Position numbers and translations under genes: made by a program. This document shows, piece after piece, positions 2,404-51,666 of a stretch of DNA of 64,000 bases. Under the pieces are notes generated by a model. It had not been told where the DNA came from. It did not search any database and saw nothing but the letters and a program-made list of their open reading frames with translations. The DNA comes from an uncultured Clostridia bacterium. Lineage in GTDB: Bacteria; Bacillota; Clostridia; TANB77; CAG-508. The DNA lies in NCBI GenBank assembly GCA_947629355.1, contig CANRDJ010000001.1, positions 20,585 through 84,584 of the forward strand. The letters are read 5' to 3'. Every line of letters begins with the position of its first letter. The first letter of the stretch is position 1.

Positions 2404-3679
2404 CTAATTATTTTTCCAATAGTTTTCATATAGTTTTTTTGCAGTATCAGGACTATCATTTCCAATAATGTTTTTTACAGGTGCAAAGTCCTCTTCTCTT
2501 TTACCTCTAAGTATTGCAATGTCATCAAATATTTTAAAACTATCAAATATAAATTGTTCAAATTTATATGCATTTTCCTCTTTTGGTTCAATTAAATTTC
2601 CTTTTTTATCTACATAGTTAGACTTCTTAAATGCTATATGATATTCTAATTCTTTATTACTCAATCTCTTTAATGCACTTATATTAAATAAATTACACAT
2701 AATATGTGATTCTCCAAATACTAGTTCACCATTTTCATCTGTAATACCTGCTATATCATCAGGTAATTCTGTATATTCTATTACTCTTACCTTATTATTT
2801 TGTTTGCAAAGTACACCTACTTTTTCATCTGGACTCCTTTTAAGTACAGTTCTAGTTCCTATTTGATTACCTTTTGATGCAGTTAAACCTAATAATAAAA
2901 TATCTACATATTTTAATAAAATATTATCAACAGAGCCTATAAATAGCCATTCTATGCCTCTTTTTTCCATATCTGCTATTACTCCTTTTTTTAGCATAGA
3001 ATTAAATATTCCTCCATTGCCATTTGATGCTTCTTTTATAAGTCCATTTTCTCCTATTAATAGCTTTCCTTGCTCATTTAATAATGGTAACTCTCCTTGC
3101 TCAAATATATAAACATAATCTTTTGGATACCCAAAATAATTGTGTTTTTCTAAAAAATTTACTGTATCATCATTGTTTTCTTTGCTAGTCATAATATACC
3201 ATGGAATTATTACATTATATTTGTCGTTTGCTCGTTTTAAAGTATCTATTATTATTTCAAATAAATATTTTGATTCATTTTCAAATTCTATTTTGTATGT
3301 ACCTTTAGCCCCTGAACATCCGAAGTCTAGTGCCCTGACCTCCTGCCATTGTTGCAATAGCGTATTTATTGTTTCTTATAATATCTGTACCTATTTTTTT
3401 ATAATTTTCTAGTTCCTCATTATTTAATCTATCTGGATTAATTCCTGTAATTGGGTGTAGTTCTTCTAAATCTACATATGCGTCTTCAAATGTCTTTTCA
3501 TATAATTCATTTAATTCATCAAAATCTATATTTAGCACTTGGTTTATTAGTTTGTTTTTAATATTTGAAGATGACTTATCAATAAATTCTATAATGTGTT
3601 CTTGTTTGTATTTTTTTAATATTTCTTTTGCTTCTTCATAATTATTTCTCATTTTATAATCCTTTCTAAATACCTTCAT
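2404..3679 (-). CDS. UDP-sugar / UDP-N-acetylglucosamine pyrophosphorylase (UDPGP/UAP1 family), disrupted by 1-nt insertion near 3322
   Basis: N-terminal part ends ...ATMAGGQGTRL. Removing G3322 restores GQGTRLGCSGAKGTYKIEF, the canonical UDPGP glycine-rich motif. The two ORF-track pieces 3305..3679 and 2404..3357 overlap. Confidence 0.7.
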
Positions 3680-3730: not shown

Positions 3731-3990
3731 AATTGTAATTTGTTGGGTTAAATTTGTTTTCAAATCCGTAGGGGTCGCACCCCTGGGCGACCCGCGATTG
3801 TAATTTATTTGATAACCTTTTACGCGATTTAGGGCAATTCCTTCGATGTATTCGGGTCGCCGAGGGCGGCGACCCCTACAACATTTGCAACAGATTTAAT
3901 CGTCTGGAAATTCAGGACAGTCCCCTTTTTTTCCTTTTGGAAAAAAAGAGGGACAGTCCCTAGAATTTCCTCTCACAAACAACAATTTAT
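3731..3990. mobile_element. MITE-like element, copy A: TIR AATTGTAATTTGTTGGGTTAAATT, GC-rich three-way-junction core (outer stem GTAGGGGTCGC/GCGACCCCTAC), plus GGACAGTCCC hairpin module
   Basis: GC-rich island in an AT-rich divergent intergenic region. Flanks CCGTAGGGG ... CCCCTACAACATTTGCAA are shared with the copies at 28826 and 45908. Stems differ from those copies by compensatory changes. Confidence 0.6.
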
Positions 3991-21787: not shown

Positions 21788-24700
21788 CTATATTCTTTCT
21801 TCCAGTACTTTTTTATTTATAATGTATATTCCAAATCCTAATATAAGCATACTTACTATTACTATTCCTATATACATTACTGGTGAACCTGTTGCTATTG
21901 ATACTATTAAGCTTGCTGTGCTTATATCATCTTCACCTAATTGTTTGTTCCCTGCTACAGAATCAAATTCTGTTATTCCTTGTAAGTTAGTGTTTTCTCC
22001 TATTTCACCTATATTTTCTATTGTTCCTGTACTATCTGATTTTAATGTTTTTGTTAATACTAATGTTACAGTTTTTGTTTCGCCTGCTTTTATTACTTGT
22101 TCTGATAATGTTTTGTTGTGTAGTACTTTATTTCCATCCATGTACCAATCTTTATTAGCTTCTGATGTAAATACTAGTCCATCTGGTAAATAGTCTATTA
22201 CATCACCTACATAGCCATCAACATCACCTTCATTTGTTACAGTTAAATCATATTCTACTAGCATTACTGTTCCTTCTATTTTCTTTGCTGATATTTCTAC
22301 TTTTGTAAAGTTTGTGTCTTCGTATTCGTAGGTGCTTGTTCCTGCACTATTTGTTAATACTACTTTGCTTATGTATTTATCTAATCTTAAATCGAATTTT
22401 GCATTTTGTATTAATCCTATGTCTATATTATTAATATCTTCATCTTGTAATGTAATTGTATCTGTTATTCCTACTGTTTTCGTCTCACCATTTATTTCTA
22501 TTTGTTTTGATATTGCATCTGAATTTGTTTCATCTGTTGCATCTGATGTTTGATATTTTGTTACTGCATATTTACTTGTATCATATTCAAATACTACTGT
22601 GTATTCACCTTTTTTGATGTTTTCAAATTTATATGTTCCTGTAAGTGATGTTGTGCTTTCAGCTATTTGTTTTCCTTCTTTATCTAATAGTATTACTTTT
22701 ACTGCTTGAAGAATTTGTTCGTTTTCATCTCTTATTCCATCTTTATTTTCATCAAGCCATGCAAGTCCTGAAATGCTATTTGACTCTTTTTCTTCTGGAG
22801 TATCACTTGGGTCTGTTGGATTGCTTGGGTCTGTTGGATCCGTTGGCTCGTTTGGATTGCTTGGGTCTGTTGGCTCGGTTGGATTGTTTGGGTCTGTTGG
22901 ATCCGTTGGCTCAGTTGGATCTGTTGGCTCAGTTGGATCATCATATTGAATTTGATCACTTACTATTGTATTTGTAATTGCATTTGATTCTAAGAAATCC
23001 TTATCGCCCAAATTAACTTTTGCAACATTTGTTATTTGTTTTGAATAAACACCATCATCTAAATCTAACACAGTTCCTGTAACCTCTATTGTCATAGTGT
23101 GTCCACCTAAGACTTCGGCTATGATATTTAATTCATTAGAAGCATAAATATCTTCTGAATCATCAAATACAGCTCCAGAACATTTTATATCATCAACAAA
23201 AATCTCTTCTGGAATATTATCAAATATATTAACTGGATATTGATATTCTGTTTCATTTGTTACTTTAATAGTATATTTAATTTCATCACCTACGTTTAAA
23301 GTTTCTGGAGAATCTGATTCCATTTGTATTTTCCAAACAGGATTTAATACTTTACTTGTATATACATTTGATGCATATTCTTTTTTATTATAAATTGCAA
23401 TAGCAGAGTTATCTATATTTATTTGACTAATATTGTTACCTAATTTATCAACAGATACTACAAATCTTTTTTCTAGTGTTTGACCTGCTTGTAAGTTATC
23501 AATAGTATATGTTAATTCTTGAGTTTCTTTATTATATTCCCAATCTTGATTGTATTCACGTTCATCTTCCCATATTGTTTGGTTTGGTACTTTAGATTTT
23601 AATTCTACATTATTCATGTCAGTACCTGTATTATTTTTTACCATTACTATATATTCGATTTCATCGTATTTAGTTAAAGATATAACCATATTAGCACGTC
23701 TTGATAAGCTAACAGTTAAATCTCCTTTTATTACCTGCACAGGTTCTGTTGTTAAGCTTGCTATTTCTGATTTATCTGTATTTTTTAAAGTTACTTTATT
23801 TACGATTTGTGTTGCTTGTTCTTTTACTTTTATTGTAACATCTTTTGATATTGTTTCTTCTGGAGCTATTGTTTCTATTTCCCAAGTTTTGTTTTTTGTA
23901 TTTTCGTCATCTGTGTATGTCATGCTTGTTCCTTGTGCTTCTGTTAATTCTGTAAGTATGGCATCACTTGGAACTATATAGTCTAAAGTAACATTGTTTA
24001 AAGCCTGCCCAGTTGTATTTTTTACTTTTAAATTATAAGTTATAATTTGTCCTTGATGAATAGTATTAGTCATTGTTTTTGCTTCTAATGCTATGTTTAT
24101 TCCATTTATATTTTGTTCAGCTGCTATAGCTTGTTCAGCATTTGTTATAAATTTTAGTGTTTCTTGTTTTTCTTCTTTTGCTACTGTTCCACTTACTTTT
24201 ATTGTACTTTCTTCAGCATTTGCTGTTTTTAATTCATATTTGTAGTTTAGTGTTACTGTTTCTCCTTGTTTTATATCGTTTTGTGGAACTATTTTAAATG
24301 ATTTTAAGCTTTCTAAGTTTTGTGCTTCTGTTTTCCAGCTATCTGAGTCTACTTGTGGATTTTCTTCTTCTGAATAATATACTTTTGCATCTTTTATGTT
24401 TGTTGCAATTTCAGAGCTTAATATTGCTTCTTGAGGAATTGTTCCTACTATTGCTTCGTTTGATAGTGCATTTTCATAGTTGTTTATCATTTGAGCACTT
24501 ACTTCTACTTTTTCATTTTGTTTTGCATTTACATTTACTGTAGTTTGATTTATTTTTTCTGCTACTTTTTCTCCTACTTTAATAGTAGATTTTGTTACTA
24601 ATCCTGATTTTGATACTATATTTATGTTGTTTGTTTTTTCTACTGTTTCTGCATTATTAATACATGTAGTTTTTATTTCTACATTTTTGTTTGCTATAAA

Positions 24701-26647
24701 TGAATCTGTTTTTAATTTTGCGTCTATAACTATAGTTGCTGCATTTGAAGAATATGCAACTTGCTCTCCTTTTAATTGAATTGCTATTACTTGGTTTCCT
24801 TCTTCATTTGTTGTTAAATTGTATGATTTTATGCTAAGTTTGCTATCTCCTACTACTGGTGTTATATGTTCTATTGATGCTTCTTTTATTTCTTTTGGTA
24901 ATACTATGTCTATAGTTGGATTTACAAAAAGTTTATTACTTTCGTCTTTTGATGTTAATTCTGCTGTTATTTTTACATTGTTTTGGCTTAAAGCTGATAT
25001 TGATGTTTTATCTAGTGATACATTAAATGTTGTTTTTGGTTCTAATAGTTTTGCTGTGCTTTCAATATTAGAATTTACTACTACATTATTGTTTGCATCT
25101 GTTACTGTTAATGTTTTATTTGTTTTTAATTCTGCTGATGATTGAGCTACAGCTGTGTTTGATATTTTTACTGCTTTTTCGTTTGTAATTTCTATTTTTC
25201 CTTCTGTTTGTGCTTTACTCATTTCTATTTCTATTTTATTTATATTGTTATCATAAGAAATTGTATAATAATCATCTTCTGTTTCTTCTGATAATGCTAT
25301 CTCTTTTATTGGAGTAGTTTTATTTTCTGCATTATATACTGTAATTGTACCTTCATTACCTAATAGTTTTAGAGCTTCTGCTTTGTTTATTTTTGTTGTT
25401 TTATAATATGTAGATATTCCTTCTTGTAATTGTTCTTCCGAATCTTTAAGTACTATACTGTTTGCTATTTTGCTATATGGTACATATATATTAGATGTTT
25501 CCTTATAATTTGTGTCTTCTCCAATATACATTTTTCCTTTATATATATTTCTTGTTATATTGTTTTCTAATTTTGCAATGTCTCCAGTTTCTGCTAATTC
25601 TTTTTGCTTAATTGTATTTGTTTTTTCTATTGCTCCTTTTGTTCTTCCATAAATTTCTGTTGTACTTTTTACATTAGAAACAAATGGAAGTATTTTTGTA
25701 CTTTCATTATATATATATGTAACTATAAATTTATCTTCGGCATTTTTTGCCCATGTAACGGCGTTTTCTTCGTTTGCATTATTTAATATTTGTATAAATG
25801 TTTTTCCTTCTTCTGAATTATATTCCCATGTGCTATTTTCTCCATTTGCAAATTCTAAATTTGTTTTTCCATTAGTAGCTTTAGTTGTATATCCTGCTAC
25901 TTTTACTTCTTCTGGTTCCATTCCTACTTCTGGATTTACTACTTCTATTAAACTAGATTTTACAGGGGCAACATTTTCTTTAAGTTTTGATGTTATTAAA
26001 ACTTGAATTACTCTTTTGTTGTTTCCGTCTATGTTGTATATTTTATTTGTAATTACTTCTTGGTTTAGTGAAATGTTTTCTTCTGTTAATTCATCTAAAG
26101 TCCATGATGCTTTTATTGCTTTAGTTGTATTAATATCTGTTACATTTCCATTCTCATCTATATATTCTCCTGTTAATTTTATTTGGCTTTGCATGTCTAA
26201 TAAGCTTAAATTGTATGATTCATCTTTTTTTGCTATTATTGGCAAGGCTACTGTTGTTCCTCTTTCTGATTGTACTGAATCTAATTTAAACTTTGTTACT
26301 TCTGAGTTGTTTTTTAATCTAAAGTTTGTATCTACAAGTTCTATTTCCGGATTTTTTAAATATCCTTTACCTTGTACTGCTACTGATATATATAGTTGCA
26401 TTTCCGATTCTATTTTTGCTGTTTTTTCTTTTACATTCCTATCATTTTCATCAAGATAAACTTCAAATTTTACATTCTTACTATTTGTTTCATTTCCTTG
26501 ATTCGATAAACTAATTTCTACTGCTATTGATTTTCCAATGTATGAACCGAAGCAAAGCAAAATTAGCAAATGTTAAAGTTAATATCAATATCGTTGCTAA
26601 TATTTTTACTCTCATCTTTCCAGTATTTAAATTTTTTAGATTAAACA
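21788..26647 (-). CDS. giant cell-surface protein (~1620 aa) with Ig-like/DUF11-type repeats, PT-rich linker and SdrD-B-type domain; 1-nt insertion near 26549
   Basis: True start is MFNLKNLNTGKMRVKILATILILTL.. (signal peptide, GAGGAA RBS). It joins ORF 21788..26569 after removal of G26549 (..ANFALLGSYIGKSIAVEIS). Contains a PTEPTDPTD linker, AWLDENKDGIRD...GEYTVVFEYD, and a C-terminal TM plus basic tail. Confidence 0.75.
22780..22960. repeat. in-CDS tandem 9-nt/18-nt DNA repeats encoding the Pro-Thr-Asp/Glu linker
   Basis: Reiterated GGxTCxGTTGG units. Spurious antisense ORFs 22645..22977 and 22732..22959 arise here. Confidence 0.7.
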
Positions 26648-27002: not shown

Positions 27003-27069
27003 AGGACAGCCTTTTTTTGTTTAAAAACAAACAAGATACTGTCCCTATAATTTTTTACACAAACAACGA
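27003..27069. repeat. MITE-family hairpin module (GGACAGCC...CTGTCCC) plus right arm ACACAAACAACGATTATTTT; 3' of patatin gene
   Basis: Shares the hairpin and the ACAAACAA..AATT arm with elements at 3890, 37629, 46996 and 50708. Confidence 0.5.
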
Positions 27070-27907
27070 TTATTTTAATGCTTCTTTTATTTTAATTATA
27101 TTATCTAATGTTTGTATGTAACCTTCTTTATAGCAAAATTCTAGTTTACTAATGCTAAAAGGTTTTATATCTTTTAAATCAATGTCTACTACATAATCAC
27201 TTGCTTTTATAGATTCTCTAATTAAGTTTTCGGTCATTAAGTCTAGCGATCGCATAGCTATATTATACATACTGTTTTGTTTTCTTGGATTTTTAAATTT
27301 AAATTTTATTGATATTACTTTATCTACTCCTAATTTTTTAGTTTCCTCAGTTGGTAAATTATCGAATATTCCTCCATCTACGAATTGATATTTTTTATAT
27401 TCAAATGGGGCATACATTCCAGGAAATGTTGAACTGGCTCTTACGGCTTTCCCAATTTCTATATCATGTATATATTCTTTACCTTTTACATCTGCACAGC
27501 TTGTAAATATTATTTCTTTATCTGATATTAAGTCAGTTGTAGGAATAGATATAGGCATCTTTATATCTTTTATGTTTTTTATTTCTTTTAATTTTGCAGC
27601 TTCTTCGATTGCAAGTTCTATATTGTGACTTGAAGTAATTCCCCCTAATCTTACTCCTCTTACTTCTTTCATACCATAAAATATATCTTTTGGAGATATT
27701 GCCATAACATATTTTGAAAAATAGTTAAATATTTTTAACATTTGATCTGTTTGGTATCCCATTGCATATAAAGCTGCAACCATACTTCCTGCAGATGTTC
27801 CTGCAATTGCATCTATTTTTATATTATTTTCTTGAAGAGCTTTAATTGCTCCAATATGTGCTGCTCCTCTTATTCCTCCGACCTGATAATGCTAATCCTA
27901 TTTTCAT
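27070..27907 (-). CDS. patatin-like phospholipase, 1-nt insertion near 27880
   Basis: Removing G27880 restores MKIGLALSGGGIRGAAHIGAIKAL... (GGxR oxyanion motif and GTSAG serine motif). AGGAGTG RBS. Confidence 0.75.
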
Positions 27908-28061: not shown

Positions 28062-28805
28062 TTAATTCTTTTTTTTTACTAACTTACTTACTACTTTTGC
28101 TGTGATTTTATCTGGTACAATTTTACTTAAAAACCTTATTATTTTATTATTGCCTCCTGGTAAAATTATATATTTACCTTTAAACATATTGTCTATTGCA
28201 TATCTTGCTACATATTTACTTGTCATTAATTTAGTTTTAAATTCTACGTTTGCTTTATTTACAAATGGAGTTTTTATAGGCCCTGGACATAAGGCACTTA
28301 CTTTTATGTTATAACCTTCTTGTTTTAATTCTTCATATATACTTTGCGTTAATTTTAGTACATATGCTTTAGTAGCATGATATGTTGCCATTTGTGGCCC
28401 TGGCAAAAATCCTGCAATTGATGACACATTTAATATATATCCAAAATTTTTCTTTTTCATTTCATAAAGGAATAGTTTGGTAAGTGTATGAACTGCACAT
28501 ATATTTGTATTTATCATGTTTAATTCTTTTATTAGATCTGTTTGCGTAAAGTTTCCACATATTCCAAACCCGGCATTATTTATTAATATATCAATATCTC
28601 CTATTTTTTTATATAATTCTATACAGTTTTCTGCATCTCCTAAATCCATACATATAATTTCTGATTTTGTTTTTATTTGCTTTTGTACTTCTTGTAATTT
28701 TTCTTGGTCTCTTGCTACTAATACTAAATCTATTCCTTGCTCGCTTAAATACATAGCCATTTCTTTTCCTATTCCAGATGATGCACCTGTTACTAATGCT
28801 TTCAT
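28062..28805 (-). CDS. SDR-family short-chain dehydrogenase/reductase
   Basis: TGASSGIG cofactor motif, NNAG, YxxxK (YHATKAY). Confidence 0.85.
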   Translation of the reverse strand: MKALVTGASSGIGKEMAMYLSEQGIDLVLVARDQEKLQEVQKQIKTKSEIICMDLGDAENCIELYKKIGDIDILINNAGFGICGNFTQTDLIKELNMINTNICAVHTLTKLFLYEMKKKNFGYILNVSSIAGFLPGPQMATYHATKAYVLKLTQSIYEELKQEGYNIKVSALCPGPIKTPFVNKANVEFKTKLMTSKYVARYAIDNMFKGKYIILPGGNNKIIRFLSKIVPDKITAKVVSKLVKKKN

Positions 28806-28825: not shown

Positions 28826-28975
28826 AATAAATTGTTGTTTGTTGAATTAAATTAATTTTTATATCCGTAGGGGCAGATTCCATATCTGCCCGCGAATTAT
28901 TTATTGTTTTTCGGGCGGAAATTGATTCCGCCCCTACACATTTGCAATAAATTTAACAAAACAAATTACAATTTG
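28826..28975. mobile_element. MITE-like element copy B1 (~150 bp): TIRs AATTGTTGTTTGTTGAATTAAATT / AATTTAACAAAACAAATTACAATT around a GC-rich three-way-junction core
   Basis: 100% identical to 45908..46058. Core = outer stem GTAGGGG/CCCCTAC enclosing hairpins GGGCAGAT-tccat-ATCTGCCC and GGGCGGA-aattgat-TCCGCCC. Confidence 0.7.
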
Positions 28976-29081: not shown

Positions 29082-29396
29082 TTGAATTTGAAAAATTTTG
29101 GTTTGAATGAAAATGTTATGAATAGCATTAAAAATGTTTTTTGTAAATATCCACAAATAGATAGGGCTTGCATTTTTGGATCTCGTGCAAGAGGAGATTA
29201 TAAAGAGACTTCTGATATTGACATAGTCCTTTATGGAAATGATTTAACTCATTCTTTAAATACTAAAATTTTTTATGATTTAGAAGATTTATATATAATA
29301 TATAAAATTGATTTAATTAATTTTAATTCTTTAAAAGACGATGATAAACTAAAAGAAAATATTATAAATGAAGGGGTTGAAATTTATGCCAAATAA
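29082..29396 (+). CDS. minimal nucleotidyltransferase (MNT, Pol-beta superfamily); putative antitoxin of an MNT-HEPN module
   Basis: GSRARGD...SDID nucleotidyltransferase motif. The start may be the internal TTG at 29088 or the ATG at 29118. Confidence 0.7.
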   Translation: MNLKNFGLNENVMNSIKNVFCKYPQIDRACIFGSRARGDYKETSDIDIVLYGNDLTHSLNTKIFYDLEDLYIIYKIDLINFNSLKDDDKLKENIINEGVEIYAK

Positions 29397-29775
29397 TTTA
29401 ATTCAATCTTACGAAGTATTTAAAAATGCCTACCTGAAATTAGAACAGTTTATAAATGAAGATGATTATTCTGAAATTGCTAGGGCTGGTATTCTTCATG
29501 CTTTTGAATTTACGTTTGAACTTTGGTGGAAATTTTTACAAAGATACCTGGAAAACATATATGTGTTGGAAGAACATGGTCCAAGTAGTGTTATTAAAGT
29601 AGCATTTCAAAATGGAGTTATAAAAGATGGTCAGATATATATGGATATGTTAAGAGATAGAAATCTAATCTCACATACATATAAGGAAAATATGGCAAAA
29701 GAAATTTATTTAAGAATAAAAAATGAACATATTAATACATTAAAAATATTTGTAGAAAAATTTGATTTGATATAA
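29386..29775 (+). CDS. HEPN-domain protein (HI0074 / NTase-substrate-binding family); putative toxin
   Basis: R(x4-6)H motif RDRNLISHTY. Overlaps the MNT stop. AAGGGG RBS. Confidence 0.7.
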   Translation: MPNNLIQSYEVFKNAYLKLEQFINEDDYSEIARAGILHAFEFTFELWWKFLQRYLENIYVLEEHGPSSVIKVAFQNGVIKDGQIYMDMLRDRNLISHTYKENMAKEIYLRIKNEHINTLKIFVEKFDLI

Positions 29776-44632: not shown

Positions 44633-46058
<1,426 letters not shown>

Positions 46059-46059
46059 T

Positions 46060-46080
46060 AAGACCTTATGGTCTTTTTTT
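46060..46080 (+). terminator. intrinsic terminator AAGACC-TTAT-GGTCTTTTTTT after purA/MITE
   Basis: 6-bp stem plus T-run. Confidence 0.6.
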
Positions 46081-46778: not shown

Positions 46779-46995
46779 TAGATAATATTTATAATGAATT
46801 TACTTTTGGAAGAAATGATAATCGTTTTGAAATTTTTGGTATAACTCTTTATTTTGACGATATTTTATTGATATGTCTTTTGCTTTTTTTATATAATGAG
46901 GGGGTTAAAGACCAGCTTTTATTTATATCATTAATTATGTTGTTGCTATCATAATTTGAATTTGATAGAAATTATTAATTATTAAATCGTTCAAA

Positions 46996-47072
46996 ATTTC
47001 AGGACAGTCCCTCTTTTCTTCCAAAGGTAAAAAAGGGGACTGTCCCTAGAATTTTTTCACACAAATTACAAT
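46996..47072. repeat. MITE-family hairpin module GGACAGTCCC-loop-GGGGACTGTCC plus right arm CACACAAATTACAATT; bidirectional terminator between convergent genes
   Basis: Perfect 10-bp inverted repeat. The right arm is identical to the TIR of the B copies. Confidence 0.6.
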
Positions 47073-47684
47073 TTATTCTAATATTATTTCGTTGTTGTCA
47101 TTAACATATGCAAATTTATATGGTTCTTCTAATTGTCCTTTTTCAATCTCTTTTACTATATTTGCAATTCTAAGTTGTGGACAGCCTATTCCATTTGTTG
47201 CTATGATTGCTTTTTTGTTTCCTTTGGCTCCTGCATGTGCTAACCCTCTTAAAATTCCCAATACAACTATATTCTCTCCTGCTATTGCTTCTGCACCACC
47301 ATTTAAATCTCCTAATATTACAAGACTTCCTTCAAATTCTATTTTTTGACCAGATCTTAGACTTCCTCTATAAAACTTAGTTTCAGATGTATTAATTTCC
47401 TCTTCAAATACTTTTTTTATGCCATGTAATCCTAATGTTTTAGGGCTATCAAACGTAACGTCAACATCAATTTCATCTGTAATTATTTTTTTTATTTCTT
47501 CTATCTCTTTATTTTTTAATACTTTACCTGATACACATATTGGTGTTTTTTCAGCTTTATATAATTTTTTTAGTGCTGGTATTTTCTTGTTTAAACATTG
47601 TATTGTTTCATCATATGTTGCTTTTTCACTTATTCTTATTACTATTTCATCTTTTTTCATACTAATTCCTACTGGGTTTCTCAT
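47073..47684 (-). CDS. minC: septum site-determining protein MinC
   Basis: C-terminal RSGQKIEFEGSLVILGDLNGGAEAIAGENIVVLGILRGLAHAG beta-helix motif. AGGAGGA RBS. No minD/minE downstream. Confidence 0.85.
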   Translation of the reverse strand: MRNPVGISMKKDEIVIRISEKATYDETIQCLNKKIPALKKLYKAEKTPICVSGKVLKNKEIEEIKKIITDEIDVDVTFDSPKTLGLHGIKKVFEEEINTSETKFYRGSLRSGQKIEFEGSLVILGDLNGGAEAIAGENIVVLGILRGLAHAGAKGNKKAIIATNGIGCPQLRIANIVKEIEKGQLEEPYKFAYVNDNNEIILE

Positions 47685-47715: not shown

Positions 47716-47896
47716 GTTTGAGGGACAAGCCTTAAGTTATTAGCATTCCTCATAGATTGAGGCATGTCCTTTGCAATGTTTGAGGGACAAGCCTTAAGTC
47801 ATTAGCATTCCTCATAGATTGAGGCATGTCCTTTGCAATGTTTGAGGGACAAGCCTTAAGTCATTAGCATTCCTCATAGATTGAGGCATGTCCCTC
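47716..47896. repeat. hairpin-repeat array: three tandem 62-nt units
   Basis: GTTTGAGGGACAAGCCTTAAGT(T/C)ATTAGCATTCCTCATAGATTGAGGCATGTCC(TTTGCAAT) x3, final unit ends GTCCCTCTTTTTAAT. No spacers. Confidence 0.9.
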
Positions 47897-47899
47897 TTT

Positions 47900-49972
47900 T
47901 TAATTGTTTTGCTGTTCTGTATATGGCTTTGCTGTTACGTCTTCATTTATTTCTCCTTTTAAGTTGAAGTATTCTTCTATAATTTCTTTTGTAACTTCTG
48001 CTGTATATGAACCGTGTGCTCCATTTTCTACCATTACTACAATTGCGATTTCAGGATTATCATATGGTGCAAATCCTACAAACCATGCATTAACATTATC
48101 CCCTGCTTCCGCAGAACCAGTCTTTCCACCTACTTCGATATCAAAATCTTTAAATACGCCATATGCTGTTCCTCCAGTTTCTGTTGTAACTGATTTCATT
48201 CCTTCTAGTACTAAATCTAAATTTTCCTTTTTAATATCTAAGTCTTCATTATTTATCTCTGTTAGATTCAATTTTTGTTGAGAATATTGTTTAATTTTTT
48301 CTTTTCCTAATGATATACCATCTGCATCTATTATATCTTTTACAATACTGACTTTGACATTTTTTCCTCCATTTGCAAGCATTGCTATATATCTTGCCAT
48401 TTGAATAGGTGTAAAATTGTTTTCGGCTTGTCCAATTACTGCGGATAAAGAATTCCCATAATACCAGGTTTCTTTCAATTTATTGTATAGAGTTTTTCCA
48501 GCTAGTGTTCCGGATACTTCTCCTGGCAATTCTATATTGGTTTTTTGTCCTAGTCCAAAGTATGTTGCATATTTTTCCAAGTTTTCTATTCCCATTCTAG
48601 TTATTACTTCATAAAAGAAATAGTTACATGAATTTTTTATTGCCCCTGATACGTTTAAGGCACCATGTCCTCTGCCTTGACTAGAATAAATCCAGCATCT
48701 TGGTTTATACCCTCGTGGATATATTCCTGTATCATATATTGTTTCTGTAGGAGTTATTGCTCCTGTTTCCAAACCTGCTATTGCTGATACCATTTTAAAT
48801 GTAGATCCTGGTGCATATGCACTTTGTATTGCTCTATTTACTAATGCGCTTCCTTCCTCTTTAGTATATTCATTCCATTTTTCTGTGCTTATTCCATTAA
48901 CAAATAATTGTGGCTCAAAATCTGGATAACTTGCTATTGCAAGTACGTCTCCTGTTTTTACATCTAATACAACCGCAGCTCCAGATTTTACATCTCTAGT
49001 TTCGTAAAATCCACCTGTTTTTATTTTTTCTATATTATTTTTTAAAGCCTTTTCTGTTGTAGATTGAAGATTCGCATCAATTGTTAATATGACATTGCTT
49101 CCTTGAATTGCTTCTTCTGTTATATATTCTCCTGTTGTTGTTCCATCTATTGACATATCTGTTTGTTTTTTACCATTTTTTCCTCTTAAATATGGTTCAA
49201 ATACGTATTCTATTCCTGCTTTTCCTATATAATCATTCATAGAATAACCTTCCATTTTTTTTAGTTCTTCTTCATTTATTTCTCCTATATATCCAATTGC
49301 ATGTGATGCTAAGCTTTGTCTTAAATATTTTCTAACAGATGATGTTGATATTGATACTCCAGGAAATTCTAAATTTCTCTCTTCAAATATTGCTACACTT
49401 TTTGTACTTATATTTTTTGCTATGGTATATGAATTCATACTACTATAACCTTCTGTTTCTATACCATATCTCATAGCAATTATTTTTCTTGCTTCTTTTA
49501 TATTGTTATTACTTATTTCGTATTTTTCTTTATATTTTTGTAATACCTCTTCTGCTGATGAATTTTCATCTAAATTATTATCTTTCAACCAGTTTTTTAA
49601 TTTCTCATCACTTATTGTAAATTCTGTTGGATTTATTTTAACAGGGAATTCATCTTTATACTTATCTTCATTTGATTCTAAAACTTGTGCTACTTTTAAT
49701 AAAGTATTATTTAGAGTTTCTGTATCTATTTTACTTCTGTATATTTCGACATTATATTGATTTACTGTTCCTGCAAGAACGTTTCCATTTCTATCTAATA
49801 TATCTCCTCTTGCAGCAACAATAGTATTTTCTCTAGTTAATCTCGAACTAGATTTTTGTAAGTATTCTTCACCATGTACTATTTGAAGGTTAAAAAGTTG
49901 TACTAATAGTATGATACCTGTTATATACACAATTACTGTTAGTATATTGTATCTTACATTCTTTTTGTCCAT
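47900..49972 (-). CDS. mrdA: penicillin-binding protein 2 (elongasome transpeptidase)
   Basis: 690 aa. N-terminal TM and PBP dimerisation domain. Transpeptidase motifs STFK (PGSTFK), SxN (SCN) and KTG (GKTGS). Confidence 0.9.
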   Translation of the reverse strand: MDKKNVRYNILTVIVYITGIILLVQLFNLQIVHGEEYLQKSSSRLTRENTIVAARGDILDRNGNVLAGTVNQYNVEIYRSKIDTETLNNTLLKVAQVLESNEDKYKDEFPVKINPTEFTISDEKLKNWLKDNNLDENSSAEEVLQKYKEKYEISNNNIKEARKIIAMRYGIETEGYSSMNSYTIAKNISTKSVAIFEERNLEFPGVSISTSSVRKYLRQSLASHAIGYIGEINEEELKKMEGYSMNDYIGKAGIEYVFEPYLRGKNGKKQTDMSIDGTTTGEYITEEAIQGSNVILTIDANLQSTTEKALKNNIEKIKTGGFYETRDVKSGAAVVLDVKTGDVLAIASYPDFEPQLFVNGISTEKWNEYTKEEGSALVNRAIQSAYAPGSTFKMVSAIAGLETGAITPTETIYDTGIYPRGYKPRCWIYSSQGRGHGALNVSGAIKNSCNYFFYEVITRMGIENLEKYATYFGLGQKTNIELPGEVSGTLAGKTLYNKLKETWYYGNSLSAVIGQAENNFTPIQMARYIAMLANGGKNVKVSIVKDIIDADGISLGKEKIKQYSQQKLNLTEINNEDLDIKKENLDLVLEGMKSVTTETGGTAYGVFKDFDIEVGGKTGSAEAGDNVNAWFVGFAPYDNPEIAIVVMVENGAHGSYTAEVTKEIIEEYFNLKGEINEDVTAKPYTEQQNN

Positions 49973-50018
49973 ACTTGATTTTACCTCCTTCTTTTATGTT
50001 TAATTTGTGTTATTACAA

Positions 50019-50081
50019 AGTTTGAGGAACATACCTTAGCATACGGAGGATTTCTCATAGGTTGAGGTATATCCCCCGTTT
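50019..50081. repeat. single degenerate hairpin-repeat unit between PBP2 start and mreD stop
   Basis: AGTTTGAGGAACATACCTTAGCATACGGAGGATTTCTCATAGGTTGAGGTATATCCCCCGTTTTTAAT. Confidence 0.65.
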
Positions 50082-50616: not shown

Positions 50617-50707
50617 TATGACCTCTTTATTTTAATTTGTAACTATTTTACATTATTTTTTTAAATTTTTCAAGGAAATTTCTACGGAAATAAGAATTTT
50701 AGAAAAT

Positions 50708-50808
50708 AATTGTTGTTTGTTTAGTTCTCTGGAAATTTCAATAACAGTCTCCTTTGTTTAAAAACAAAAGGGACTGCCTCCTTAAATTTTCCCAAACAAA
50801 TTACAATT
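50708..50808. mobile_element. MITE-family element with hairpin core: left TIR AATTGTTGTTTGTTTAGTT, core ACAGTCTCC...GGGACTGCC, right TIR CAAACAAATTACAATT
   Basis: Left TIR matches copy B (AATTGTTGTTTGTTGAATT) and right TIR matches B/46996. Confidence 0.6.
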
Positions 50809-51666
50809 TATACAATTAAATATTGCAACACTACTGTTGATATTACACCTATTAAATATAGACCTAATACTATTTTTATATTTTCTTTTTGATTATGATT
50901 TACTTTAAACAGTACTATTAATCCTACTCCTGCGTTTACTAATAGTCCTCCTATCATTAGTGCTAGGTTTAATACATTCGATAAATAAAGCTCTGTTAAT
51001 ATTACTGATGATGCACAATTTGGTATTAATCCAATTAATGCTACAATTAGCGAACTTATTATTGGTTTATATGACGTTAATTTTGCTAAGTTGTCTTCAC
51101 CAATATATTTTATTGCAAAATTTAATAATAAAGATATTACAAAAACAAATATAAATACATTTATTGTGTGTTTTATGGCCGACTTCCATATACTTTTTTC
51201 ACAATGACAATGGTCATGTTTACATATGCTTTCTATTTTGCTATTTTCATTATTCTTTTTATAAAATTTATTTAATAATAAATCTATTATTATACCAGCA
51301 ATCATGCCTATTAGTATTTTAATTCCTAATATTTTTAGTATCAAAGACCCTGATATGCCTTCCGATAATAATATTGGAAGCATCTCATCTGAGGTGGATA
51401 AATATACTGCAAATAATGTACCGAATTGTTATTACTCTTCCTGCATATAAATTTGTTGCTGTTACTGAAAATCCACATTGTGGAAAAGCACCTAATATAC
51501 TACCTATAAAAGGACCAAATCTTCCGGATTTTTTTATTGCTTCTCTTGTTTTATTCGTTGTTTTATGCTCAATATATTCCATTATTAAATATGCCACTAG
51601 TAAAAATGGAAGTATCTTTATTGTATCAATCAAAGTATCTTCCAAAATATGTAACAATTCGTGCAT
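50808..51666 (-). CDS. polytopic membrane protein with His/Cys-rich loop (KHDHCHCEKS); putative metal-related permease; 1-nt insertion near 51424
   Basis: ORFs 51385..51666 and 50808..51383 join as ..RVITIGTLFAVYLSTSDEMLPILLSEG.. when G51424 is removed. Confidence 0.55.

Follow-up and report, generated by a model that had tools for sequence, protein, structure and literature searches.

The GC-rich core of a short dispersed repeat in an uncultured Clostridia bacterium is a pair of canonical GTAG repetitive extragenic palindromes (REPs), inverted head-to-head with GTAG outside, a doublet of the type known from REPINs (REP doublets forming hairpins) and BIMEs (bacterial interspersed mosaic elements). 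The repeat, here called the type I element, was studied in a 64,000-nucleotide stretch of contig CANRDJ010000001.1 (assembly GCA_947629355.1), hereafter the window, which has a G+C content of 28.4% and comes from a host described as a low-GC (28%) uncultured gut Clostridia lineage. An initial sequence-only reading of this stretch had taken the core for a GC-rich three-way junction; what it saw is no novel RNA fold but the head-to-head REP doublet, which lies in an AT-rich palindromic shell and was copied with that shell as one unit. We favor, at about even confidence, a model in which the element is a non-autonomous REPIN-type repeat copied on single-stranded DNA by a Y1 enzyme of the REP-associated tyrosine transposase (RAYT) type, with recombination or gene conversion at the shared ends reshuffling the cores.

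A head-to-head REP doublet in an AT-rich shell

Two copies of the type I element lie within the 64-kb window. Copy 1 (w1; 28829-28974, plus strand) runs from AAATTGT to ACAATTT end to end over 146 bp, and copy 2 (w2; 45912-46057, plus strand) is identical to it. The sequence-only reading had called two copies identical, and the match between them extends over 148 bp at 100% (28827-28974 and 45910-46057), or 151 nt at 99% when the next three bases are counted (family D8). In copy 1, the left terminal repeat (28829-28843, plus strand, AAATTGTTGTTTGTT) is followed by REP1 (28867-28891, plus strand), which consists of GTAG and the stem strands GGGCAGAT and ATCTGCCC around the loop TCCAT. After a spacer of 21 nt (28892-28912, plus strand, GCGAATTATTTATTGTTTTTC), whose form is kept in relatives, e.g. 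as GCAAATTGTGTTTTTTC in locus L023, comes REP2 (28913-28937, minus strand), composed of GTAG and GGGCGGAA / TCAAT / TTCCGCCC and preceded on the minus strand by TTGCAAATGT. The right terminal repeat (28960-28974, minus strand) reads AACAAATTACAATTT on the plus strand. REP1 and REP2 of copy 2 occupy 45950-45974 and 45996-46020.

Under the rule of Quentin et al. 2018 (PMC6006769), a canonical REP has GTAG or GTGG 0-2 nt 5' of a hairpin whose basal stem of 7-20 nt is fully paired, with a loop of 2-5 nt and at least three G/C among the first four stem bases. GTAG stands at offset 0 in REP1 (28867) and in REP2 (28937, minus strand), and both stems are 8 bp long, fully paired and GC-first, beginning with GGGC, with loops of 5 nt. 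The arrangement of the two REPs is that of the HH dimer of Di Nocera et al. 2013 (PMC3733652), and the copies are many, dispersed and extragenic. As DNA, the element folds far better than shuffled sequences (z = -5.1) with two local hairpins dominating, and the minimum-energy fold of the 152-nt unit as RNA is a single long hairpin (-51.4 kcal/mol, z = -7.4). A REPIN, as reportedly defined by Bertels and Rainey in 2011, comprises two inverted REPs with a short spacer that are able to form a single long hairpin; the head-to-head order, the 21-nt spacer and the single long hairpin of the type I element are thus those of a REPIN.

The stems vary in a compensated manner. Across all loci compared, a perfect hairpin of 6 bp or more starts at offset 0 behind 78 of 102 GTAGGGG sites, vs 211 of 6800 random sites (3%). 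The basal 7-bp stems take 17 distinct forms, with GTAG and GGG/CCC constant, and RNAalifold on 17 doublets from different genomes returns arm-to-arm pairing with both sides changed in 7 of 14 pairs. No covariation count was taken on hand-built REP rows, since the rows had been chosen for pairing and the test would be circular; the comparison of 78/102 with 211/6800 was used instead. Stem covariation is therefore real, as the sequence-only reading had noticed when it proposed a selected RNA or DNA structure, but it does not by itself separate a structure in DNA from one in RNA. A constant GTAG foot with a freely varying stem is typical of repeats that Y1 enzymes recognize as DNA (PMC3479197, PMC6006769), and the covariation seen here is what REP families show when a Y1 transposase recognizes their hairpins in DNA.

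Outside the doublet, the shell is an AT-rich palindrome of ~38 nt per arm with the ends AAATTGTWRTTTGT, and the type I element as a whole is a near-palindrome. The elements are 60-257 bp in size and free of open reading frames (ORFs) of at least 50 aa. The end motif AATTGTWRTTTGTK, allowing at most one mismatch, has 13 matches in the window vs 1.5 expected. Its matches pair as inverted ends at 3731/3987, 28830/28973, 45913/46056 and 50708/50808, mostly 60-260 bp apart, and occur as single or degenerate ends at 27058-27071, 47060-47073 (with a degenerate left partner at 46951-46969) and 55802-55815. The flank motif CCGTAGGGG occurs exactly three times (3766, 28865 and 45948) vs zero expected from shuffling. 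Among window and relatives, the same ends of 13-15 nt bound GTAG doublets, single REPs, hairpins of a second type (type II), an AT-rich core (L013, 768-940) and a near-empty 60 bp (L008, 3343-3402), which bears out the modular family proposed by the sequence-only reading; it is dispersed and noncoding, and its inverted ends are conserved where its cores vary. From end to REP, the arms go with the REP subfamily: six loci share them in the w1 type and two in the L009 type, and those of L023 and of a third window element, copy A, are still recognizably related.

A pattern scan with one genome per species found the type I element only in rabbit-gut metagenome-assembled genomes (MAGs) labelled uncultured Clostridia, with three loci in Lapin-002 bin17 (96-99% identical to the window copies) and one in Lapin-015 bin45 (91% identical); doublets number three in the window, three in Lapin-002 bin17 and one in Lapin-015 bin45. 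The six near-identical copies (91-100% identity) sit in unrelated flanks and their similarity stops at AAATTGT/ACAATTT, so shell and doublet together are the copied unit. The identity of copies 1 and 2 requires either recent copying or gene conversion, much as had been proposed for them. Three short-read contigs of the same strain break inside the type I element, among them ENA contigs L001 and L002, which end within copy 2, and such breaks are the expected behavior of a multi-copy repeat in assembly; in the same-strain contigs L020 and L021, no empty site was found. The element had no match in the plasmid collection, a single 31-nt match in the phage collection that was treated as chance, and no match in a viral contig scan or in a first JGI metagenome scan with a strict right-arm pattern. 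A second metagenome scan, whose pattern required a motif ending in CCCCTACAACATTTGCAA, recovered doublets in the same shell in the low-GC contigs L022, L023, L029, L033, L035 and L037, low-GC doublets without the shell in L024, L025, L031 and L036, and further doublets in contigs of 43-62% G+C. Rfam at gathering score returned only two tRNAs for the whole window and, at E up to 10, nothing credible on the element; the sequence-only reading had named a match to a known Rfam family as evidence against its view, and no family matched.

Among the six copies of 91-100% identity, with three possible boundaries tabulated, no consistent target-site duplication was found, and flank matches, 2-3 nt long and attributed to chance, are limited to two copies (L003 and L007). 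No target motif was found beyond AT-richness and a one-sided enrichment of TA, which lies directly outside AATTGT at roughly half of the ends and on both sides in ~3 of 16 elements inspected. The label MITE-like (miniature inverted-repeat transposable element) given by the sequence-only reading thus fits the inverted ends of 13-15 bp, the size within 70-300 bp and the lack of coding capacity, whereas the duplicated target site expected at each copy is not seen.

Persistent sites with changing contents

Copy 1 separates an SDR gene (28062-28805, minus strand) from a nucleotidyltransferase gene (29082, plus strand), the two starting divergently on either side of it. The interval 29082-29775, directly adjoining it, holds the ORFs of this nucleotidyltransferase and of a nucleotidyltransferase substrate-binding protein (MNT/HepT-like). 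Copy 2 begins on the purA stop codon (45911-45913) and has a terminator-like hairpin downstream of it (46060-46075), so that it is probably situated inside the purA 3' untranslated region. The sequence-only reading had copy 2 supplying the purA stop codon; the codon does overlap the first bases of the repeat, but relatives without an element end purA in the same ...MI(I/V)R-TAA, so the protein is unaffected by the element. Elements repeatedly start on stop codons in this way (purA, minC and an ArsP_2-family gene), with the protein ends unchanged.

Copy A (3731-3987, plus strand; left end 3731-3744, right end 3974-3987) is a composite element. It holds REP1 (3768-3793, plus strand; GTAG GGGTCGC...GCGACCC), REP2 (3854-3879, minus strand) and a type II module (3906-3970, plus strand; GGACAGTCCC ... 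GGGACAGTCCC). As the sequence-only reading had described, copy A keeps the terminal inverted repeats (TIRs) and the flanks CCGTAGGGG and CCCCTACAACATTTGCAA, has different hairpins that still pair (GGGTCGC.../GGGTCGCCG...) and carries both cores; it and the GGACAGTCCC elements have the ends AAATTGTWRTTTGT in common with copies 1 and 2. Four further elements had been listed as sharing the TIRs, and for two of them this holds. The first is the type II element at 46951-47076 (plus strand), with a degenerate left end (TAATTTGAATTTGATAG), the core GGACAGTCCC / GGGGACTGTCCC and a right end that overlaps the minC stop codon. The second, at 50706-50809 (plus strand), is two-ended, though its type II-like hairpin core is degenerate; the stop codon overlapped by its right end is that of the ArsP_2-family gene, and the element is absent from L013. 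The third, at 27003-27071 (plus strand), is a partial type II-like element with a right end only, at one mismatch. The item placed at 37629 is an isolated type II core palindrome at 37650-37674 (GAATTCAGGACAGTCCCTAGAATTC, no strand assigned) without terminal repeats, and at this intergenic site L013 has an element of 173 bp in which an AT-rich core lies between the same ends. A solo terminal repeat lies at 55802-55819 (minus strand, AAATTGTTGTTTGTA on that strand).

Comparison with relatives reveals that the sites persist while their contents change. At the purA stop codon, where the window has a w1-type copy, L008 (purA 93% identical) carries a diverged type I element with other stems, and L013 (96%) and L009 (90%) have no element and rearranged downstream DNA. 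Between murA and cdd, the type I element of L010 recurs in inverted orientation in L011, while L009 holds a single-REP form, L012 a type II element and L008 a 60-bp shell; the flanks of the four strains L009-L012 are 99.2-99.8% identical. At the minC stop codon, the type II element of the window is replaced by a plain GGGGCCTGTCCCC terminator-like hairpin in L013, a 27-nt palindrome in L008, a type I doublet in L009, L011 and L012 and a single REP in L010. L013, with a purA 96% identical to that of the window, is without the elements at three window sites.

The opposed elements of the murA-cdd site (L010, 3255-3431; L011, 3256-3432) lie in flanks that are 99.6-99.8% identical, and the L010 element is 96.7% identical to the inverted L011 element over 183 nt, with 6 of 183 positions differing. 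A clean reciprocal inversion was rejected for this pair, since base 13 of the ends misfits a single crossover point.

A further repeat family in the window consists of units of 58-62 nt, often in tandem after gene ends, with outer pairing GAGGGACA...TGTCCCTC and an inner CCTCATAGATTGAGG hairpin. Its units lie at 14660-14792, 38729-39014, 42612-42683, 47716-47901 and 50015-50051; the array at 38729-39014 is absent from L013, and in L008 one unit abuts a type I element.

Y1 transposase genes and their repeats

Which enzyme could act on such repeats? The sequence-only reading found no transposase with matching ends in the window, and this holds, but it missed a Y1 (HUH) transposase-family gene of 252 aa at 12394-13152 (minus strand; Pfam Y1_Tnp, E = 2.9e-13). 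The best NCBIfam match of this gene is REP_Tyr_transpos, at 60 bits vs a cutoff of 80, and IS200 scores 16 bits. The hairpins on its two sides, 12355-12387 (TGGCAGAAAAGGGGACAGACCCCTTTTTTGCCA, with the GGGGWSAS motif) and 13204-13236 (TGGCAAAAAAGGGGTCTGTCCCCCTTTTTGCCA), neither assigned a strand, share a conserved GGGGACAGACCCC top, as do the hairpins that flank the gene on both sides in three related species. Inverted repeats with a GGGGWSAS motif characterize the TIRtron with its tyrosine transposase, TIRYT (PMC3733652), which is subclass 2.1 of Quentin et al. (PMC6006769). Here, too, a RAYT-related Y1 HUH protein has GGGGACAG hairpins on both sides instead of GTAG REPs, and by sequence the 12394-13152 gene is assigned to the TIRYT or subclass 2.1 type.

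Apart from L017, where it is duplicated in tandem, the gene is single-copy and syntenic in all relatives examined, the gene order being peptidase M18, Y1 gene, 284-aa protein, dihydroorotase and orotidine monophosphate (OMP) decarboxylase. Its protein diverges fast, at 72% identity where purA has 96% and at 57% where purA has 90%. In L017 (1356-3259), the two tandem TIRYT-type copies encode 271 and 252 aa, and other strains of the L015/L016 species have one. Likenesses to described TIRtrons include a protein longer than RAYT (252 aa vs the 146-position REP_Tyr_transpos model, with a C-terminal extension), GGGGWSAS inverted repeats on both sides, a single-copy, syntenic gene and a hairpin that is dispersed (family D3, nine copies in the window). 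Unlike in TIRtrons, the flanking repeats of the window gene are complete hairpins that resemble bidirectional terminators, their outer stems covary between species and one copy is translated inside purL. We know of no function or mobile substrate that has been shown for a Y1 gene of the TIRYT class.

The outer stems are species-specific yet pair (TGGCAAAAAA, AAACGAAA and GAGGATTTT; window 12355-13236, and ~2400-3300 of L015, L016 and L018), and the hairpin loop is flipped between the two sides of the gene. The connection of this system to the type I element is indirect and runs through the type II core GGGACAGTCCC, which is one base off the GGGGACAGACCCC top; pooled, type II core and Y1-flanking hairpin have 14 matches vs 0.05 expected. 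Within purL (ORF 34294-37608, minus strand), a full TIRYT-type hairpin (TGGCAAAAAAGGGGTCTGTCCCCTTTTTTGCCA, 35686-35718) is translated in frame as ...WQKRGQTPFLP..., between the AIRS_C domain and later domains.

Genes closer to RAYTs are found in relatives. In L040 (28.7% G+C), a RAYT-like gene shows the motifs NHVH, WQ and YIRNNP and bears two REPs inside the coding sequence; it scores 67 bits to NCBIfam REP_Tyr_transpos with two reading frames joined. Its internal REPs are 96-100% identical to those of copy A and of the L022, L023 and L010 elements; the REP1 region of copy A agrees with the L040 REP at 32 of 33 bases, the one difference lying just 5' of GTAG. L042 has a similar, truncated RAYT-like gene whose internal REPs are likewise 96-100% identical to REPs of the copy A subfamily. 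In L016, a truncated RAYT N-terminus, homologous to that of the RAYT in L005, adjoins a GTAG REP, and the homologs of this fragment are all short ORFs cut off at REP insertions, L040 and L042 being the two of their loci examined. A derivation of the type I element by deletion from a RAYT-bearing element with the same ends was rejected, since similarity to L040, L042 and L016 is limited to the REPs and a few adjacent bases.

L005 is a Desulfosudaceae contig (CAXXDV010000003.1, 52% G+C) that the scan also matched. It carries six near-identical GTAGGGGC doublets around and inside a Y1_Tnp ORF (132-1015 and 3057-3284), the arrangement called a REPtron, and one doublet is translated in frame in the RAYT-like ORF as residues 88-108. 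Two of the six copies carry a GCAAATG(T/C)TGTAG flank like that of the Clostridia elements. A conserved extended head TGCAAAYRYT-GTAG across phyla is thereby suggested but not established, the flank being present in 2 of 6 L005 copies and the second metagenome scan having required the motif. The genes of L040, L042 and L005 resemble RAYT subclass 2.4 (Quentin et al. 2018, PMC6006769), whose tnpA-REP gene contains inserted REPs, in their NH[IFV]H, WQ and YIxNN(P) motifs and in REPs near the HUH motif; the differences are that the genes are in relatives and not in the window, and that the low-GC copies are frameshifted or truncated.

Other features of the window were observed alongside these genes. 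The GATase_5 domain of purL is split over the ORFs 34294-37608 and 33816-34238 (region 33816-34296), GICNGFQALIKLG reading through in another frame, so that this is a pseudogene, a frameshift or an error of assembly. At 32353-33825, two back-to-back TIRYT-type hairpins (33733-33775 and 33783-33825) adjoin a RelA_SpoT-like ORF and a SocA/Panacea-domain ORF, which together look like a toxin-antitoxin pair. A tandem repeat of at least 11 units of 9 nt (TTGG(G/A)T(C/T)(T/C)G-like) occupies 22780-22956 inside the ORF of a large surface protein (21788-26569).

Copying of the element and its consequences

The likeness of the type I element to REPIN/BIME families with their RAYT (TnpA-REP) enzymes is broad. 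It has inverted REPs with a 5' GTAG foot, a GC-first stem, a short loop and a possible single long hairpin; many extragenic copies, often just after genes; compensated stem variation with a fixed GTAG; REP number and orientation that vary at orthologous sites; and the same REPs in RAYT genes of related genomes. It differs in that its host is a low-GC uncultured Clostridia, that no RAYT lies in the window and that the copied unit reaches ~38 nt past each GTAG into an AT-rich shell with inverted ends of 13-15 nt. Head-to-head GTAG dimers amid a longer AT-rich palindrome, with arms conserved between copies, are known from the GTAG-15 family of Anabaena variabilis (PMC3733652). Palindrome sequence and host differ from ours, and no REP-free palindromes were found there, whereas here the same ends bound other cores or none.

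In the model we favor, a tyrosine transposase of the RAYT type (Y1, HUH), whose gene would lie elsewhere in the genome, recognizes the REP hairpins and GTAG feet on single-stranded DNA, and the subclass 2.4-like genes of relatives, with their internal REPs of the copy A subfamily, would be the kind of enzyme proposed. By cutting and rejoining single strands, this enzyme could produce new copies without target-site duplication, which may land in AT-rich intergenic DNA, often directly at stop codons. RAYT-type copying is favored because no consistent target-site duplication or target motif accompanies the copies and no DDE transposase was seen in the sequences covered. Recombination or gene conversion between the shared ends would then swap, invert or halve the cores at occupied sites, and such core exchange would explain why the purA copy is identical to one 17 kb away while the purA element of a relative has diverged. 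The same shell also carries the GGGACWGTCCC hairpins of type II. Copies within a transcription unit, as at purA, may add a stable 3' stem, and REPs in other bacteria protect mRNA through such a stem.

Several observations weigh against this model. No canonical RAYT was found in the 64-kb window, its sole Y1 gene being TIRYT-like; the L040 gene is frameshifted after its second REP and the L042 and L016 genes are truncated, so that no intact enzyme was seen in the low-GC relatives. The stems GGGCAGAT and GGGCGGAA of copies 1 and 2 occur in no RAYT gene seen, the L040 match being to the copy A subfamily (GGGTCGC), and the similarity of the elements to RAYT loci covers the REPs and a few adjacent bases, not the shell. 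RAYT action, described at the REP itself, does not obviously explain the copying of ~38-nt shell arms, and the one-sided TA enrichment could stem from duplications that have decayed or from a weak preference for certain targets. The model is weakest where unrelated cores have the same 13-15-nt ends, since RAYT copying leaves this unexplained, which keeps two rival explanations alive.

The first rival, which we consider fairly unlikely, is that the element is a classical MITE, in which an unseen DDE transposase recognizes the 13-15-bp TIRs and mobilizes whatever they enclose; REP doublets, AT-rich cores and type II hairpins would be carried along or would have inserted later. Common ends classically point to a DDE transposase acting on terminal repeats, and the same ends do surround type I, type II, the 173-bp AT-rich core of L013 and the core-less 60 bp of L008. 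The over-represented end motif, the size, the intergenic position, the lack of coding capacity and the TA outside roughly half of the ends fit as well. Like bacterial MITEs (Correia/NEMIS, RUP, ERIC and Nezha), the elements are noncoding, of 100-260 bp with TIRs of 13-20 bp, inserted beside genes, open to co-transcription and strongly folded by prediction. Correia and RUP elements, however, duplicate TA, and here the near-identical copies have no consistent duplication, TA on both sides being confined to ~3 of 16 elements; the core, too, is a canonical REP doublet. A Pfam scan of 20 window ORFs found no DDE transposase, Y1_Tnp being the only transposase-family match, and the precomputed Pfam labels of genes at the relatives' loci include none. 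The window, the plasmid and phage collections and ~260 kb of related low-GC loci yielded no full-length insertion sequence bearing these ends, and no long element in the ~260 kb is bounded by them.

The second rival treats the shell as a landing pad, a pre-existing target palindrome into which RAYT doublets and TIRYT GGGACWGTCCC hairpins inserted later, with the identity of copies 1 and 2 due to gene conversion bounded by the ends. Precedents have been described in the GTAG-15 dimers of Anabaena in long palindromes, in CGTC-1 dimers of H. neapolitanus in 41-bp palindromes and in GTAG-23 elements of T. roseum in small palindromes that are also found unoccupied (PMC3733652). REP-free shells exist (L008, 3343-3402; L013, 768-940), as do shell-free doublets, in the low-GC contigs L024, L025, L031 and L036 and inside RAYT genes. 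One site holds different contents in strains with flanks >99% identical, and the purA site has a diverged element in L008 and a w1-identical copy in the window. However, the arms are subfamily-specific and travel with the REP, at six loci of the w1 type and two of the L009 type, those of copy A and L023 are still recognizably related, and a homology of 13-15 bp is very short for gene conversion of the RecA type. We judge this explanation unlikely.

A structured small RNA or cis-regulatory RNA gene, with a three-way junction selected at the RNA level, would account for the strong predicted fold (z = -7.4), the covarying stems and the position of copy 2 within the purA transcription unit, but it is very improbable given that Rfam offers no match even at E up to 10, that a near-palindrome would fold alike on both strands, that the copies lie in unrelated contexts (3' untranslated region, divergent promoter regions, RAYT coding sequence) and in both orientations at one site, and that a constant GTAG foot with a free-varying stem points to Y1 DNA recognition (PMC3479197, PMC6006769).

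REPs, REPINs, RAYTs, TIRYTs and GTAG dimers inside long palindromes have all been described before. New here are the low-GC gut Clostridia host, shell ends common to non-REP cores, and the closeness of a RAYT-type REP and a TIRYT-type hairpin in one modular family. To our knowledge, work on REP/REPIN-RAYT systems has dealt almost exclusively with Proteobacteria and Cyanobacteria. A survey of GTAG/CGTC REPs makes no mention of Clostridia or Firmicutes (Di Nocera et al. 2013, PMC3733652). In practical terms, type I elements break short-read assemblies of these genomes, and, since they occupy stop codons and 3' untranslated regions, they bear on annotation and on the strain typing of these MAGs.

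We also put forward, as a doubtful but consequential idea, that the AAATTGT...ACAATTT shell may serve at the ends of genes as a dedicated docking or cassette site, common to GTAG REPs (RAYT) and GGGGWSAS-type hairpins (TIRYT). If the shell is such a shared substrate or landing pad, the published question of whether TIRYT and RAYT enzymes act across each other's repeats would become experimentally accessible, and the copying of the REP unit without target duplications would be easier to explain. Cores would then be inserted, exchanged, halved and inverted in place, in keeping with the differences between strains whose flanks are >99% identical, and the elements would amount to an HUH-driven cassette system that works on single strands and rewrites transcripts at their 3' ends.

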